A stretch of DNA of 64,000 nucleotides from an uncultured Pseudomonadota bacterium (GTDB taxonomy: Bacteria > Pseudomonadota > Alphaproteobacteria > UBA9219). Each line of letters starts with the position of its first letter. Position 1 is the stretch's first letter. The notes under the pieces are model-generated. The model did not search any database and had not been told where the DNA came from. It saw only the letters and a program-made list of their open reading frames with translations. A program made the translations under genes and the position numbers. This document shows, one piece after another, positions 17,096-28,296 of this stretch. The stretch is from assembly GCA_903919315.1 (NCBI GenBank), contig CAIXHP010000026.1:10428-74427 (forward strand), given 5' to 3'.

Positions 17096-18130
17096 TCACA
17101 AAAACATCTGCTTTACGTTTATACTGGAACGCTGGCCAAGCGCGTCCCAGTTGGCGGTCAGCCATGCCTCGGCCGTACGGCGGCCGAGGTCTTTCAGATG
17201 CAGCAGAAAGTCCATATCCGTATTGATCTTACTTGCGGAACCAAGCGCGCGCATCTCATCCTCAGCCGCAATAACGTGAATGAACATATGTTTCAGCCGC
17301 GCTGCCTCTTCGTTTTTCAGTTGATCCTCTTCGATGAGCTTCTGGACAAACGCGATCGCGCGCATCTCGCTCATCAGGGAAGAGTTAAAGCTGATTTCAT
17401 TGATGCGGTTGATAATCTCCATTGGCGAGTCGGGCGTGCCCGAACGCACCATAGGGTTAATCTGCACAAGCACCACGTCAGGTGTCGTGCAATGGTAGAT
17501 CAGCGGGAATACGGCGGGATTGCCGACATACCCGCCGTCCCAGTAGGGCACGCCATCGACCGGCACGGCTTGAAAGGCGAGGGGCAGACACGCCGAGGCC
17601 ATCAACACGTCAAGGCTCACTTCCTCACGCCTAAAAACGCGGATTCGCCCGGTCTCAACGTTCGTTGCCGAGACGAATAGCTTTATCGCGGGAAAGGCGC
17701 GAATAGCCTCAATATCGAGGATATCTTCCAACAGGTCGCGCAACGGATTGAGGTTGAACAGATTGGTTTGATAGGGCGACATCATCCGCTGCATCATGTC
17801 CGTCATCATCGTGGCGGGTGAGTTGTCGGTGTTCCAATTGCCGAGCATCTGGTCAACGACGCTTCGGTGCGGCAACCCAAAACTTCCCAGTGCGCTGACA
17901 CCGGTCCAGAACCGCTCCAGCATCTCCCGCGCCCCGTCCGCACCGCCTGTGGCATAGCCGTTCAACAGGACGGCGGCATTCATGGCTCCGGCGCTGGTGC
18001 CGCTGATACCCTCGATCCGCAATCGGTTGTCCTCTTCCAAGAGCCGATCAAGAACGCCCCAAGTGAATGCTCCGTGGCTCCCCCCGCCCTGAAGCGCGAG
18101 ATTGACGCCTTTGACCGTCGTCCCTGACAT
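17096..18130 (-). CDS. Patatin-like phospholipase family protein
   Basis: GGGSHGAF oxyanion motif, GTSAGA serine hydrolase motif, DGG catalytic Asp. Confidence 0.85.
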   Translation of the reverse strand: MSGTTVKGVNLALQGGGSHGAFTWGVLDRLLEEDNRLRIEGISGTSAGAMNAAVLLNGYATGGADGAREMLERFWTGVSALGSFGLPHRSVVDQMLGNWNTDNSPATMMTDMMQRMMSPYQTNLFNLNPLRDLLEDILDIEAIRAFPAIKLFVSATNVETGRIRVFRREEVSLDVLMASACLPLAFQAVPVDGVPYWDGGYVGNPAVFPLIYHCTTPDVVLVQINPMVRSGTPDSPMEIINRINEISFNSSLMSEMRAIAFVQKLIEEDQLKNEEAARLKHMFIHVIAAEDEMRALGSASKINTDMDFLLHLKDLGRRTAEAWLTANWDALGQRSSINVKQMFL

Positions 18131-18382
18131 GTGAACTCCCTGAAAACAACGCGATCGTCACACAAACCGACAATTACATTAACGAAGTCTTTATTTTTCG
18201 CGGCACTTTGACCGACAGAAGATATTTTTTCGCAACATTCAAACACGAGGCTACACCATTGATATTCAGGTGGAAATTTCTTGACGTTTTCACTCCGGTT
18301 GTGGATAATAGTGCAATCGCCGCGAGCTCGGTTTTATGGCGCGTCGCTTCTTGAAATCCATTAGAAAAAGAAGTGGTACAAC

Positions 18383-18772
18383 ATGACAACAACCTCTCTT
18401 CATCGCATGGCCAAGGCGTTCGCCTGCGGAGCTTTGCTACTCTCCCTCTGTATCCTCCCCACCGGCGCTGCTTTTGCAGAAAGGCTCTTTCCGCCGCTTG
18501 ACGCAACCGGGACGGTTGACTGCGCCGTTAACGCAGGCGACAAAGTCCTTTTGTGGGACACATCGAACGGCGGAAGAGTGCGCTGCGACGAGAAAGCAAA
18601 CGTATTCTCGACTTTGTGGGAATGTTCGCCCGGACAATACATTACCAAAATTGTCAACGGTGAGCCGCAATGCAAAAACATCGTACGTGCAGCCATTGCA
18701 TGCCCTGCGAATGAATATCTCACCGGCATTAACACCGATGGATCTGCGGTTTGCAAACCCATGAACCCATAG
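18383..18772 (+). CDS. Secreted cysteine-rich protein, paralog A (129 aa, 6 Cys in the mature part)
   Basis: Signal peptide ...TGAAFA followed by ERLFPP. Two copies of a C-P-x-x-Q/E-Y-x-T-x-I...C module. First of three tandem paralogs. Confidence 0.6.
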   Translation: MTTTSLHRMAKAFACGALLLSLCILPTGAAFAERLFPPLDATGTVDCAVNAGDKVLLWDTSNGGRVRCDEKANVFSTLWECSPGQYITKIVNGEPQCKNIVRAAIACPANEYLTGINTDGSAVCKPMNP

Positions 18773-18840
18773 CGCTTTCATTGAGGGCCAAACGATCCGG
18801 CTCTCTTGTCCTACACGTTCTTGACACCATGAGGAATTTG

Positions 18841-19410
18841 ATGCGCATCCCACCCAAGTTCACCAAAGTCATAGCACAAGGCCTTCTGGTTTTAGGTCTG
18901 GCGGCGCTTTTTGCGGATCTGGCGCAGGCGGGCGAATTGTTTCCTCCAACCCGCGCCAACGGCACAGGAATATGCAATCTGAACGATCAGGTTCTGGTGT
19001 GGGATTCGACGGGCGGAAAAAATAAGTGCGTGTCCAAATCGTCCTTTATCACAGCACAAGCGCGATGCCCGGTTGGACAGTTTGTGACGAAAGTCGAGAA
19101 CAGCGTTCTCACCTGTTCGGCGCCCAAGTTTCCGCGCGTAACCTGTCAGGATAAAGAATTTCTGACAGGTATCAATGCTGACGGAACACCTATCTGCTCA
19201 CTCCCGCCCGCGACCCTATGCCCCGCAGCGTCCGGTCGATGCGTGGGGGGGGGGCAATTTGACATGATTGCGCAAAACAACGTCGTCTGCTGGCACACAA
19301 ACCCAAGAACGGGGGACTGCACATGTCCATCCGACTGCACGACGCTTGAGGGCGCGCACTGGAAACCCAGCAATCATACCTCAGCCGCCGTCTTTTTCTG
19401 CATCCCGTGA
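18841..19410 (+). CDS. Secreted cysteine-rich protein, paralog B (about 190 aa; conserved core plus a Cys-rich C-terminal extension)
   Basis: ATG at 18841 is preceded by GAGGAA. Signal peptide ...DLAQA followed by GELFPP. Same six-Cys core as paralog A. Confidence 0.6.
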   Translation: MRIPPKFTKVIAQGLLVLGLAALFADLAQAGELFPPTRANGTGICNLNDQVLVWDSTGGKNKCVSKSSFITAQARCPVGQFVTKVENSVLTCSAPKFPRVTCQDKEFLTGINADGTPICSLPPATLCPAASGRCVGGGQFDMIAQNNVVCWHTNPRTGDCTCPSDCTTLEGAHWKPSNHTSAAVFFCIP

Positions 19411-20048
19411 TGCGGGACGGATTTGTCATTTTACCGATAGCCTGTGAGGAAACCGTGTCAATCACACTCCGAACCGCCAAGATTTTTTCCCTGTGCCTCT
19501 TGGCCTTGGGCCTGAGCACACTTTTTCCGAACAACGCCAAAGCGGATCGTCTTTTTCCACCCTTTAAAGGCGACACACTCAACGTCTGCGACGGTGATGA
19601 CCAGCTATTGATCTGGGATAAAGACGCGGGGAAAAACAAATGTACGGATACATTTGCGATCGTCAATACGGCTGCCTGTCCTCCTAATCAATATATGGTC
19701 CATATCGTCGGTGGCAATATCAGCTGCGTTGGCTACGCCCCAGCCGGAATTTCTTGTCCTGACGGACAATTCATGACTGGGATCGATGCCTCCGGAGCAC
19801 CTATCTGCGCCGCCAAAGCCCCTAACCTATGCCCTCCGCCGCCAAGAGCTTGCACAGGCGGCTGGGCTCAAAGTGGCCACTCAGGAACTGGCGAGCATTG
19901 GTGTAATGATTATACTGGTGATGGTGTCTGCACGTCATATCCTGGCCACTGTAGAGGAACCTGCTCAACAAGAGGGCCAACAGCTTCGGCCTGCAGTGGT
20001 CGCGTCTGTCGAGATACCTATATCTGCACCGGCACGACAACGCCCTAG
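19410..20048 (+). CDS. Secreted cysteine-rich protein, paralog C (core plus Cys/Gly-rich extension). Alternative GTG start at 19455 gives a canonical signal peptide.
   Basis: ATG overlaps the B stop (TGATG). AKA followed by DRLFPP. Same core motifs (LLIWD, CPPNQYMVHIV, CPDGQFMTGID). Confidence 0.55.
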   Translation: MRDGFVILPIACEETVSITLRTAKIFSLCLLALGLSTLFPNNAKADRLFPPFKGDTLNVCDGDDQLLIWDKDAGKNKCTDTFAIVNTAACPPNQYMVHIVGGNISCVGYAPAGISCPDGQFMTGIDASGAPICAAKAPNLCPPPPRACTGGWAQSGHSGTGEHWCNDYTGDGVCTSYPGHCRGTCSTRGPTASACSGRVCRDTYICTGTTTP

Positions 20049-20148
20049 CATGCTCCATGCCAGTTAGATGGGTGTGTGCGCTTTGCGGTTGAATTCATGC
20101 ATTGCGCCACGCCCCTATCCTCGCTATAACGCCACGCGAAGACACAGT

Positions 20149-20225
20149 CGGAGAGTAGCTCAGCCCGGTAGAGCACTGCCTTCGGGAGGCAGGGGCCGGA
20201 GGTTCGAATCCTCTCTCTCCGACCA
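20149..20225 (+). tRNA. tRNA-Pro (anticodon CGG)
   Basis: 77-nt cloverleaf: acceptor CGGAGAG/CTCTCCG, D-arm AGCTCAGCCCGGTAGAGC, anticodon stem CTGCC/GGCAG with loop TTCGGGA, T-arm GGTTCGAATCC, 3' CCA encoded. Confidence 0.85.
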
Positions 20226-20285: not shown

Positions 20286-21848
20286 CTAGGTCACCACCTC
20301 GGCCGCTCCGCCCTCGCGCTGGACCACGAGCCAGTTCTGGCGGCCGGTCTGGAAGTTGATGCTGCCGGTCAACCCCAATGCCTCCAGCGTGTGAACGTAC
20401 AATCCGCGTAGTTCTTCGGGCAAGCCATGGGGAAGGGGGCGCTCGCTCCGCACGACAAGTTCAAGCTGCCGTGGCCGTGCCAGCCCGTCCATTTGCATCG
20501 CCCCGAGGCGCGACATGTTCATGCTGATAAGAAAGCGCGTTTGCTTCGCAAGCTCAGCTCCGGCCAAGCTCGACTGCCTCTGCTGGCCGTCCCGATGCAC
20601 ATAGAGCCTGAGCATCTGGAACTGCCCTTGATCGATGATCGGAAAGGGGAAAGCCCGCCACTCCCCGACCGTGGTGTCGCGGGCTGGGGCCGAGGCCTGT
20701 TGCAGTTCGTCGATCAGCTTGGCGATAAGCTCGCGTTTTCCGTCTTTGTCCAGCTTGCCCGTCGCCTCTTCGCCCAGCCATCCCGTCACGCCGCTCTGCT
20801 GCAAGACGTTGAACAGAAACAGCATGGAACCGGGCAGGGCAGCGTTGGCTTGCGGAACCCGCGTGTGCAAGACCTGCTGCGCCAGTGCCGGATCAAGCTG
20901 CTGCAACGCCGCCATCAATTTTTGCAAAGAGGGAGCTGAATCGTCTGGGTTTATCGGCCATGCAATCGCCGCTGCTTCCTCCGACGGAAGCACCGATAAC
21001 AGGAGTCTGCTTCCCGTTGGCAAGTCCGCGCTCTGGCGCACGAAGAGCGATGTGCCCTCGACACGCAGCAAAAGCCCGCCATGACCGCCTTTGCCGACCA
21101 CGGTGGCAACAAACTGGTCGGCTGTTTCGGGAACCGGCGCTAACGCATTCGGCGCGACGACGCTATCAACCCGTAGCCTCAGCTCCGCGCCAAAGCTTTG
21201 AAGATTCACATTGGCAGGGCCGGTCTTCACCACCGCCCCCGTCGTCACGGATGGCGTTTGAGCAACCGCCGTCGATGAGATGGCTTTCGGCAAAGCCTGC
21301 GTTGCGGGAGCCGTACCCCCTGAAGAGGTCGTCGCCAACTTGGTTGATGGCTCCGGCACCCGCCCGAAATCCCCCGGCAAGACAACGGCTGAAAGCGTCA
21401 GTCCGGGCGCGATAGGCGGCCCTGATGGCTTGAGTCCCTGAGCGAAGGCGACTAACGGCGCTGCGGAACTTCCGCCTGCAAACGGCTCCATGACCGAAGG
21501 CGGCACCAGCAAGAATGCCTGTGTCGGAGGACTTCCGGGTTGGAGGATGAGGCCGACGGGACGTTGGCTCTGTGCCATCGGCGCAAGAAACGAAGCCAGA
21601 GGATTGGTCGTGCCGTTCGGCAGAGGCGAAGCGCCGAGAGTCAAATTTCCCGCCGCCGTTTGCATCGTAAAAACGCCGTCATCCAACAGCGCCACAATCG
21701 GGCCGTTAAGTTGGATCGCGCGAGCCAATTGCTCAAGCTTGCTCGGCAGGGACTGGATCGCAACGCTTAACAACGCCACTTCGTCCGGCACAGCGTTCGT
21801 TAACAAGGCCGTCGCAACGGTGGCATTCAGAGGGGGGAGATCGACCAT
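20286..21848 (-). CDS. Putative flagellar hook-length control protein (FliK-like). Pro/Ala/Thr-rich with a FliK-like C-terminal domain.
   Basis: Last gene of the flagellar operon. C-terminal region ...MSRLGAMQMDGLARPRQLELVV..ERPLPHGLPEELRGLYVHTLEALGLTG fits the FliK C-terminal pattern. Low-complexity N-terminal two-thirds. Confidence 0.4.
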   Translation of the reverse strand: MVDLPPLNATVATALLTNAVPDEVALLSVAIQSLPSKLEQLARAIQLNGPIVALLDDGVFTMQTAAGNLTLGASPLPNGTTNPLASFLAPMAQSQRPVGLILQPGSPPTQAFLLVPPSVMEPFAGGSSAAPLVAFAQGLKPSGPPIAPGLTLSAVVLPGDFGRVPEPSTKLATTSSGGTAPATQALPKAISSTAVAQTPSVTTGAVVKTGPANVNLQSFGAELRLRVDSVVAPNALAPVPETADQFVATVVGKGGHGGLLLRVEGTSLFVRQSADLPTGSRLLLSVLPSEEAAAIAWPINPDDSAPSLQKLMAALQQLDPALAQQVLHTRVPQANAALPGSMLFLFNVLQQSGVTGWLGEEATGKLDKDGKRELIAKLIDELQQASAPARDTTVGEWRAFPFPIIDQGQFQMLRLYVHRDGQQRQSSLAGAELAKQTRFLISMNMSRLGAMQMDGLARPRQLELVVRSERPLPHGLPEELRGLYVHTLEALGLTGSINFQTGRQNWLVVQREGGAAEVVT

Positions 21849-27268: not shown

Positions 27269-27592
27269 CTAGTTCCGCTCCGTCTTGATGATTTCCGTCA
27301 TCGTAATCCCTAGCCGATCCTCCACGACGACGACTTCGCCGCGCGCGACGAGGCGATTGTTGACGTAGATGTCGATGGCTTCGCCGACCTTGCGGTCGAG
27401 TTCGATGACCGCGCCGCGACCGAGTTTCAGCAGGCTGCTCACCTGCATCGTCGCCTTGCCCAGCACGGCGGAAACCTCGACGGGAATGCCGTACACGGCT
27501 TCCAGATCAGTGATACTGGCGACAGCGCCGTCTTTCGGCTTTTCGCCGTTGCTGCTTTCCAGTTCGGAAAGGGTAAGGCTTTCATCGCTCAT
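27269..27592 (-). CDS. fliN: Flagellar motor switch protein FliN
   Basis: 107 aa. SpoA/FliN domain (IPVEVSAVLGK..M.V..LL.L..G.VIELD). Confidence 0.85.
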   Translation of the reverse strand: MSDESLTLSELESSNGEKPKDGAVASITDLEAVYGIPVEVSAVLGKATMQVSSLLKLGRGAVIELDRKVGEAIDIYVNNRLVARGEVVVVEDRLGITMTEIIKTERN

Positions 27593-28296
27593 AACGTTTC
27601 TCCTGATGGTGCGTTCGTCATAGATGGATCGGTGTTGGGCGAAGCTGGCAGGCTACCCGCCTGCGCCTCCTCAACGATGCGGTTGATGTCCTGCCACAGT
27701 TTTTCAGAGTCGCGCTCAATGCCGCCGTCCGCCCATTCGATACGGCAGTCGGCCGCGCCGAGATCCGGCTCGCCCAACACCACGACCTTGCCCGCATAAG
27801 CCTGACGCGCCGTAATGTCGGCAATCTTGGCGCTGATCGCGTCGAACTGCGCCTCGCCGACGCGAATGACCAGACGCGGCTCGCGCCCGATTTCGGTCAA
27901 TACCTGTGCGATAACGGCCTGAATTTCGTCGCAGCCATAGCGGGCGGCATAGGCGGGCATGATCTTGCGAGCGACGGCCACGGCCACGCATTGAAGATGT
28001 CCCATTTGTTCGCGCCACTGTTGCGCGGCCGCTTCGTTCAGCTCATTCAGCTTTTGCTCGACGCGCCCCAACAGCGTGTTCATCTGCTGGCGTTGCGTTT
28101 CCTCGGACGCTTTTTGCCCGGCGGCATAGCCGGATTCATAGGCCTGTTCGCGCACGGTTTCCAATTGCTGCTCGGTATAAGTCGGGGCAGGCGGCTTGTC
28201 GCCCTCCACTACGCCCAGCGCAAGGCCATCGTCGAACGAACGATCAAACAAATATTTTCGCATTGGCATCGCGTCAGTAGACAAGCTCATCCTCAT
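27589..28296 (-). CDS. fliH: Flagellar assembly protein FliH-like (FlbE-position gene)
   Basis: Gene between fliG and fliN. Coiled-coil Glu/Gln-rich N-terminus and a FliH-like C-terminus ([12 protein letters not shown]). Overlaps both neighbours. Confidence 0.6.

Follow-up and report, generated by a model that had tools for sequence, protein, structure and literature searches.

The closest described concept to the proteins reported here is the MAT chimeric fibre of Bdellovibrio, in which an invariant N-terminal part and a repetitive stalk are followed by swappable C-terminal tips with differing binding specificities (PMC10769870; Caulton et al. 2024). MAT proteins form long fibres that are trimeric, have beta-helix stalks and carry a dedicated N-domain; the constructs described reach residues 1,031-1,151 (PMC10769870). 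In this study, we analysed a 64-kb stretch of contig CAIXHP010000026.1 from an uncultured alphaproteobacterium (64,000 nucleotides; hereafter, the window), which contains a tandem array of three genes, paralogs A, B and C, for small, cysteine-rich proteins with predicted signal peptides. These proteins are like MAT fibres in having a constant N-terminal part, a stalk and swappable tips. However, they are approximately ten times shorter (97-167 amino acids [aa] after predicted cleavage of the signal peptide) and have a stalk of hairpins, and their mature length argues against a long fibre. The MAT N-domain (NF053851) gave no match in A, B or C at E<=10.

Several other systems share single features with the array. 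TNF-receptor cysteine-rich, EGF-like and furin-like repeats of eukaryotes and viruses are likewise rows of disulfide-held hairpins that form an extended extracellular stalk or binding surface, and the window proteins have no significant fold or profile match to any of them. Prepilin-like and TadE-like proteins that bear C-terminal hairpin repeats, which make up a large share of the best matches and are themselves unstudied, contain a unit identical in type to that of the array (consensus CPAGQYLTGINADGTPVC, compared with CPANEYLTGINTDGSAVC in A). They start with a prepilin (G|F-x-x-x-E) or TadE segment that would place them in a pilus, whereas A, B and C start with an ordinary signal peptide and a head that carries the residues L-F-P-P. 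In F-like conjugative plasmids, TraN is exported, rich in cysteines and has a variable region that sets which surface protein of the partner cell is bound; it is an outer-membrane protein of approximately 600 aa encoded by self-transmissible plasmids. The window array, in contrast, is chromosomal and its products are much smaller, and none of the libraries searched revealed sequence similarity to TraN or to exclusion proteins. Finally, fibre systems of the TasA/SipW type are Sec-dependent and have a dedicated signal peptidase. A similar arrangement is seen at one locus related to the array (L084, described below), in which the genes adjoin a small signal peptidase I gene, but no such peptidase is encoded near the window array, there is no sequence relation to TasA and nothing points to polymerization. 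In summary, A, B and C do not qualify as pilins, lipoproteins, MAT fibres or known toxins.

An earlier note, made from the DNA sequence of the window, had described three secreted paralogs encoded on the same strand that share a core of approximately 95 aa with six invariant cysteines. This description was confirmed, with lengths of 129, 189 and 197 aa, and the peptide strings quoted in it are exact. The alignment of the mature cores spans 98 columns; 21 of these are invariant, including the six cysteines, and B and C are 39 and 33% identical to A, respectively, in this region. The six cysteines bracket three units, namely one W-type hairpin (unit 0; general pattern C..Q.L.WD...G[KR]..C, found in A, B and C as C..[DN]..Q/K.[VL]L.WD...G[KR]..C) followed by two CP-type hairpins (units 1 and 2; general pattern CPxGQ[YF]xTGIxxxGxPxC, found in the three paralogs as CP..Q[YF]..[KHG][IV].......C). 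The two units of approximately 17 aa recognized earlier correspond to the CP-type hairpins and are true repeats; however, the third, divergent W-type hairpin, which holds the first cysteine pair, had been missed.

The repeat nature of the CP-type units was evident from a single-hairpin hidden Markov model (HMM) trained on 400 units, all of which were taken from proteins outside the small family described below. This model scored unit 2 at 29.0, 21.9 and 29.7 bits and unit 1 at 16.8, 8.3 and 10.4 bits in A, B and C, respectively (8-30 bits overall), compared with a maximum of 4.2 bits among 900 shuffled sequences. Structure prediction, which had been proposed as a check, agreed with this architecture. 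AlphaFold2 with the three paralogs only gave a predicted local distance difference test (pLDDT) value of 56, which was too weak for use. With a family alignment of 35 sequences, block-mean pLDDT values rose to 76-85 in the core of B (residues 10-95), which contained three strand-turn-strand elements, exactly at the three cysteine-bracketed units.

Each unit starts and ends with a cysteine, CP-type units number from one to seven per protein, and 38 of 41 family members have an even number of cysteines in the mature protein; one disulfide bond would therefore close each hairpin, pairing its first cysteine with its last. The module behaves as an extracytoplasmic unit stapled by disulfides, in line with the disulfide-stabilized extracellular module originally suggested. 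In contrast, the suggestion of diversifying duplication received no support: the paralogs are approximately 40% identical over the first two hairpins, which makes them roughly as far from one another as from the remaining members, and they share no repeats at the DNA level.

By sequence, A, B and C fall into a rare and so far uncurated family, here named LFPP, of which they are divergent members. An exhaustive HMMER search with the three cores against 1.84 billion representatives yielded 343 proteins at E<=1e-3, 42 of which reached E<=1e-10. The module is thus not private to the array but a widespread, uncurated hairpin repeat with 343 relatives, within which a family can be defined. Approximately 40 distinct LFPP members were seen, all from metagenomes or metagenome-assembled genomes and none with a name or a Pfam domain. 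Most are 120-330 aa in length, with a few longer ones. They have a common layout that consists of a signal peptide ending with ..AxAGQLFPP, a W-type hairpin, a short DPTPGVT-like linker, 1-7 CPxGQ hairpins and a C-terminal tail, and the AxAGQLFPP cleavage-site motif is unusually conserved across the family. The members align end to end with the window cores (profile positions 2-94; E values from 7e-15 to approximately 1e-7); P0017, P0020, P0021, P0029, P0034, P0043 and others do so at E values between 7e-15 and 1e-10. Conversely, a second search seeded with LFPP members yielded 32 proteins, A among them (E 3.7e-28). Within the family, A, B and C diverge most, with a mean identity of 34% to the others, compared with 48% among the others. 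In all three, the signal peptide ends with AxA, L-F-P-P lies within 2-3 residues of the predicted cleavage site, and a first hairpin of the W-type (C..G/Q.[VL]L.W....C) is followed by at least one of the CPxGQ type.

The earlier note had not recognized the proteins as any described family, and our profile searches of Pfam, NCBIfam, PHROGs and PADLOC and searches of the Protein Data Bank (PDB) gave no meaningful match. Pfam and NCBIfam contained nothing for A, B or C at E<=10 except for a chance NCBIfam match of C (E 0.23; 10.9 bits, with the cutoff at 300), and PHROGs and PADLOC gave no match at E<=0.1. No PDB entry matched significantly by sequence or fold, and the sequence search returned only chance matches to WD40 proteins and a chemokine. 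Neither the hairpin unit nor the LFPP family was represented in any of the four protein-family libraries or in the PDB results. A word-indexed protein search of 5.8 billion sequences with the three paralogs found the window's own proteins only, a scan of the GTDB species genomes with the paralog alignment found no relative, and tblastn searches of the PLSDB plasmids with B and P0156 found no match. Of 120 metagenome matches to the DNA pattern for AxAGQLFPP, three were true members, and of 17 viral matches, none was. A literature search on the motif and on hairpin repeats in pilins revealed nothing relevant.

Each of the three proteins has a basic n-region, a hydrophobic stretch (maximum 12-residue Kyte-Doolittle values of 2.4-2.6) and an AxA site, after which the mature proteins are predicted to start (AFA|ERLFPP in A, AQA|GELFPP in B and AKA|DRLFPP in C). 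The hydrophobic segment precedes the AxA site, which is the pattern of signal peptidase I. Direct reading of the sequences revealed no lipobox ([LVI][ASTVI][GAS]C) at the ends of the three signal peptides: the signal-peptide cysteines of A (LSLC) and C (FSLC) are not preceded by G, A or S, and B has no such cysteine. Prepilin motifs (G|F-x-x-x-E) and TadE segments were also not found, with no match to PF07963, TIGR02532 or PF07811 in A, B or C. As for the gene starts, the reading frame of B is open from 18751, and a GAGGA box lies 6 nt upstream of the ATG at 18841. This ribosome-binding site and the use of the same start by P0001 in public assemblies support this ATG as the start of B. For C, whose reading frame is open from 19407 onward, the GTG at 19455 is likewise supported by a GAGGA box. 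The intergenic gaps are 68 nt (A-B) and 44 nt (B-C) and make a single transcript plausible; therefore, the three genes probably form one transcription unit. A sigma-70-like promoter candidate, recognized by consensus match alone, is located upstream of A; five such consensus sites were found in the region, compared with 1.3 expected.

Identical A, B and C proteins were called in several independent assemblies, and the window sequence itself is present at 100% identity in several independent metagenome assemblies, one of which is labelled BUCK21-1 and may belong to the stratified-lake dataset of Buck et al. 2021. One contig (L003) is identical to the window up to 19011, inside B, and then continues into unrelated sequence (L003 positions 1447-1654, against the window from 19012 onward), resulting in a broken protein of 85 aa (P0004). 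This contig probably represents an assembly chimera; its diverging tail is absent from the window.

The paralogs differ in what follows the last hairpin. A stops five residues past hairpin 2, B carries a tip of 70 aa with seven cysteines, and C carries a tip of 79 aa with nine cysteines. The array thus consists of one tipless and two differently tipped versions of the same head and stalk. The tips of B and C are unrelated beyond a 12-aa neck (LCPxxxxxCxGG). The B tip is of an NPxTGxCxCP type common to P0020, P0021, P0029, P0070, P0112, P0146 and P0157, whereas no relative of the C tip was detected except for the short neck shared with B. In the family as a whole, at least ten unrelated types of tail follow the last hairpin, including NPxTGxCSCPxGY (that of B), ...YCCD, RWxNTCGARYC...GYVTGKVSEY...VDCW, a long glycine-rich type and several others. 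At the junction of stalk and tip, B contains a tract of ten G residues (codons GGG GGG GGG), which is the sole homopolymer run of at least nine bases in the window; approximately 0.4 runs of at least ten G or C are expected by composition. With nine or eleven G residues, B would end at 141 or 140 aa, respectively, that is, in a tipless form like A. No length variant of the tract was seen: contig L001 also has ten G residues, and metagenome contig L002 ends within the tract.

Outside the LFPP family, the hairpin unit was found in prepilin-like, TadE-like, MAT-like and collagen/fibrinogen-like proteins, all of them built for the cell exterior. Among the matches listed, at least 26 have a prepilin motif (G-[FMYW]-[ST]-[LM]-x-E) in the first 40 residues, and the prepilin N-terminus was confirmed by PF07963 (N_methyl)/TIGR02532 in P0018 and P0174. 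P0159 and P0163 combine a TadE N-terminus (PF07811) with hairpin units; P0009 and P0015 gave weak, below-cutoff matches to the MAT N-domain of Bdellovibrio (NF053851; E 1.5e-5 and 3.8e-4); and P0005 and P0007 contain collagen repeats, 12-29 hairpins and a fibrinogen-like GGGWT domain. The giant proteins P0006, P0008, P0010 and P0013 (3137-5006 aa), for which no family annotation was seen, contain 13-20 copies of a repeat of approximately 100 aa that ends with ...GAGLTD-C....Q.L.WD..TGRFSC-GTD.DT., and the cysteine hairpin of this repeat matches hairpin 0 of the window proteins in type. In addition, residues 178-204 of the hairpin-bearing relative P0083 matched PF25636, the disulphide-bonded subdomain of PBCV-1 P7, below the cutoff (E 0.0048; 17.1 bits against a cutoff of 30), which hints at a possible distant link to a giant-virus capsid module; PF25636 gave no match in A, B or C.

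The features of the array, its surroundings and the other loci are listed in the table below.

Coordinates of the array, neighbouring features of the window and related loci (positions in L-numbered rows are those of the respective contig)
Feature	Position	Strand	Remarks
Paralog A	18383-18772	+	129 aa; signal peptide, LFPP head, three hairpins, no C-terminal tip; identical to P0003
A, signal peptide MTTTSLHRMAKAFACGALLLSLCILPTGAAFA	18383-18478	+	cleavage before ERLFPP predicted from hydropathy and AxA site
A, hairpin 0 (W-type) CAVNAGDKVLLWDTSNGGRVRC	18521-18586	+	AlphaFold2 strand-turn-strand at equivalent place in B
A, hairpin 1 CSPGQYITKIVNGEPQC	18623-18673	+	16.8 bits with independent hairpin HMM
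A, hairpin 2 CPANEYLTGINTDGSAVC	18701-18754	+	29.0 bits with independent hairpin HMM
Paralog B	18841-19410	+	189 aa; LFPP head, C-terminal tip; identical to P0001
B, signal peptide	18841-18930	+	
B, mature part	18931-19407	+	13 Cys
B, hairpins	18973-19029, 19066-19116, 19144-19197	+	
B, tip	19198-19407	+	70 aa, 7 Cys; NPxTGxCxCP type
B, G10 homopolymer	19245-19254	+	codons GGG GGG GGG; junction of stalk and tip
Paralog C	19455-20048	+	197 aa; GTG start; LFPP head, C-terminal tip; identical to P0186
C, signal peptide	19455-19544	+	
C, mature part	19545-20045	+	15 Cys
C, hairpins	19587-19643, 19677-19727, 19755-19808	+	
C, tip	19809-20045	+	79 aa, 9 Cys
Sigma-70-like promoter candidate TTGACG-17-GATAAT	18281-18309	+	upstream of A; consensus match alone
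Compositional islet	18131-20148		from patatin gene to tRNA-Pro
Patatin-like phospholipase gene	17096-18130	-	upstream neighbour of array
tRNA-Pro(CGG)	20149-20225	+	neighbour, outside array
520-aa open reading frame, no family match	20286-21848	-	Pro/Ala/Ser-rich; adjoins MinD/ParA-type ATPase gene, flagellar cluster
235-aa open reading frame, no Pfam match	27589-28296	-	between sigma-54 activator and fliG
L092	6995-8480		relaxase-LFPP; LFPP gene directly downstream of MobA/MobL relaxase, same strand; TrfA, ParA, resolvase, toxin-antitoxin nearby; small plasmid-like contig
L239	3946-5495		as L092
L241	288-1837		as L092
L095	225-3209		as L092
L094	4283-7266		as L092
L086, L237			relaxase within 5 kb
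L238			adjoins type IV coupling protein fragment
L084	4252-9679		1228-aa fibre-like gene, two tandem LFPP genes (170 aa each), small signal peptidase I
L089, L091			chromosomal-looking; two and three tandem LFPP copies
L086	8662-10752		tail-fibre-like gene convergent with LFPP gene, 20-30 nt away
L087	5073-5849		as L086 fibre gene
L179	1862-2326		as L086 fibre gene

The window represents core chromosome, with genes for a class II aminoacyl-tRNA synthetase, ribonucleotide reductase, biotin carboxylase, RNase E and flagellar proteins, as well as BamB, Der, PurF, RadA, UvrA, LeuA, CysRS and DegP. The flagellar cluster, on the strand opposite to the array, encodes a MinD/ParA-type ATPase, an SRP54-type GTPase, FlhA, a sigma-54 activator, FliG and FliF; our guess from position is that the 520-aa and 235-aa open reading frames (ORFs) encode FliK-like and FliH-like proteins, respectively. 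The array stands out in composition: its GC content is 0.51-0.55 against approximately 0.60-0.62, and its GC content at third codon positions (GC3) is 0.52-0.61 against 0.68-0.77 in the flanking genes. The resulting islet contains no integrase, flanking direct repeats, tRNA-derived att-like site or duplicated tRNA end, and no Rfam element was found there besides the tRNA. These features fit, without proving, an old acquired islet. The nearest homologue of the neighbouring patatin gene product is 59% identical in GTDB and 70% identical in any collection, and synteny is lost there.

Nine other LFPP loci could be placed on contigs, seven of which are plasmid- or mobile-element-like and two chromosomal-looking. 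On small plasmid-like contigs, the LFPP gene directly follows a MobA/MobL relaxase gene, and at further loci a relaxase gene or a fragment of a type IV coupling protein gene is found nearby. From these contexts, the LFPP family appears to travel as accessory cargo on mobilizable plasmids. Fibre genes also recur: they adjoin the LFPP genes at three loci; in L086-L088 and L179, the tail-fibre-like gene is convergent with the LFPP gene, and those of L086-L088 contain a Peptidase_S74 domain (the L086 gene product is 696 aa). In the apparent operon at L084, the 1228-aa fibre-like protein has no family match, and the small signal peptidase I (163 aa) matched TIGR02227 below the cutoff (E 1.5e-9), with a weaker match of the TraF type. 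The presence of a dedicated peptidase beside a conserved cleavage-site motif suggests specialized processing.

Alongside the observed gene structure, family membership, repeat architecture, mosaic tips and mobile contexts, we give about an even chance to the reading that A, B and C are modular binding (adhesin-like) proteins carried as accessory mobile cargo. Of this reading, the parts that concern genes, family and architecture are secure. The proteins are predicted to be exported by the Sec system and cleaved by signal peptidase I at the AxA site, so that the mature protein starts with x-x-L-F-P-P, and then to fold oxidatively into a short rod of stapled hairpins, one of the W-type and two of the CPxGQ type. 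The docking site of the constant head (LFPP plus W-hairpin) would be a conserved partner, either in the envelope or on a fibre; the variable tip, at the opposite end, would bind a variable ligand. In relatives with the same unit, the position of the head is taken by the N-terminus of a pilin, TadE or fibre protein. This arrangement suggests that the head docks the protein and that the tip faces outside. The adhesin-like role mentioned in the earlier note fits the proteins in which the hairpin unit occurs elsewhere; the toxin/bacteriocin and surface-layer roles that it also named found no specific support.

A number of points weigh against this reading, in which both a location beyond the inner membrane and a binding function would be needed. 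No LFPP member has an experimental or annotated function, and the adhesin-like role is deduced from the shared module rather than from the LFPP family itself. A, B and C contain no lipobox, beta-barrel, pilin N-terminus or other recognized anchor or outer-membrane export signal, and they could stay in the periplasm. No partner gene for the array proteins was found in the window. The AlphaFold2 model of B has a tip pLDDT below 50 and a whole-model predicted template modelling score (pTM) of 0.36, although a low pTM is expected from a beads-on-a-string layout. Foldseek gave no significant match, with TNF-receptor cysteine-rich, EGF-like and furin-like repeats at the top. B and C have 13 and 15 mature cysteines, respectively, which are two of only three odd counts among the 41 members and leave the all-paired picture incomplete; one unpaired cysteine in each could mean a disulfide-linked B-C heterodimer or homodimer. 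In addition, the relaxase association may reflect one plasmid lineage: P0160, P0171, P0172 and P0173 resemble each other closely at their N-termini, and several of the relaxase-linked members come from one study.

Two other functions were considered for the same architecture. A constant trafficking part and stalk could deliver interchangeable toxic tips, with the tandem copies representing alternative toxins, as in bacteriocin-like or polymorphic-toxin-like antagonists. We regard this as unlikely: a constant head with variable tips, plasmid carriage as for many bacteriocins and the small, cysteine-rich, exported nature of the products would all be accommodated, but A is tipless, no conserved small immunity-like gene lies downstream in the window or at the other loci, and no tip matches a toxin domain in Pfam, NCBIfam or PADLOC, even if a toxin fold new to these libraries is conceivable. 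Furthermore, the hairpin unit is joined to pilin-like and fibre scaffolds and not to known toxin delivery domains. The second idea, to which we likewise assign a low probability, is that LFPP proteins are exported factors of mobilizable plasmids, acting in mating-pair adhesion in the manner of TraN or in surface or entry exclusion, and that the window array is a domesticated remnant. The position of LFPP genes directly 3' of a MobA/MobL relaxase gene on the same strand (L092, L239/L241 and L094/L095), a relaxase within 5 kb (L086 and L237) and the type IV coupling protein fragment (L238) would agree with this idea. However, the relaxase-linked members are closely related, as mentioned above, L089 and L091 look chromosomal, no library revealed similarity to TraN or exclusion proteins, and the 64-kb window contains no relaxase, replication or type IV secretion gene.

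The earlier note correctly pointed out that the array lies beside flagellar genes and a tRNA gene, but this location carries no functional signal and looks coincidental. That the array encodes periplasmic or envelope proteins tied to the flagellar system is very improbable, since proximity is what speaks for it (the cluster starts 240 bp past C, beyond the tRNA), whereas the array lies on the opposite strand with the tRNA gene in between, its GC3 is 0.52-0.61 compared with 0.71-0.77, and flagellar genes were found in none of the nine other LFPP loci examined. On the grounds of strand, composition and the other loci, the flagellar link was rejected. Still less credible is the view that the genes are spurious ORFs or decaying pseudogenes in an intergenic islet. 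The atypical composition, the G10 tract in B and the lack of close relatives of the organism in which conservation could be seen would agree with it, but all three ORFs are intact and have ribosome-binding sites, the six core cysteines and the LFPP motif are kept although B and C are only 33-39% identical to A, and there is significant full-length similarity to approximately 40 proteins from unrelated samples. Finally, a bolder proposal, which we hold to be quite improbable, is that LFPP proteins represent a new class of exported, mobile-element-borne surface modules, in which the head would be an assembly or docking strand by which interchangeable binding tips are mounted on a cell-surface structure, or the protein a factor for partner-cell recognition or exclusion encoded directly behind the relaxase of MOBQ-type mobilizable plasmids, and in which the tip of B would be switchable by slippage in the G10 tract.

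The modular, exported stalk-and-tip design is already known, and what is described here is a well-delimited family and a clean candidate for a new domain-family definition rather than a new mechanism. Our analysis would add two uncatalogued building blocks of bacterial extracellular proteins, namely a one-disulfide beta-hairpin repeat found in pilin-like, TadE-like and fibre proteins and an LFPP head that takes the place of the pilin anchor in a small, mobile family with swapped tips. If the relaxase link is functional, mobilizable plasmids would themselves encode a contact or exclusion factor. If the tips are binding domains, the LFPP family would be a compact system in which to study the exchange of surface specificities by bacteria and plasmids.

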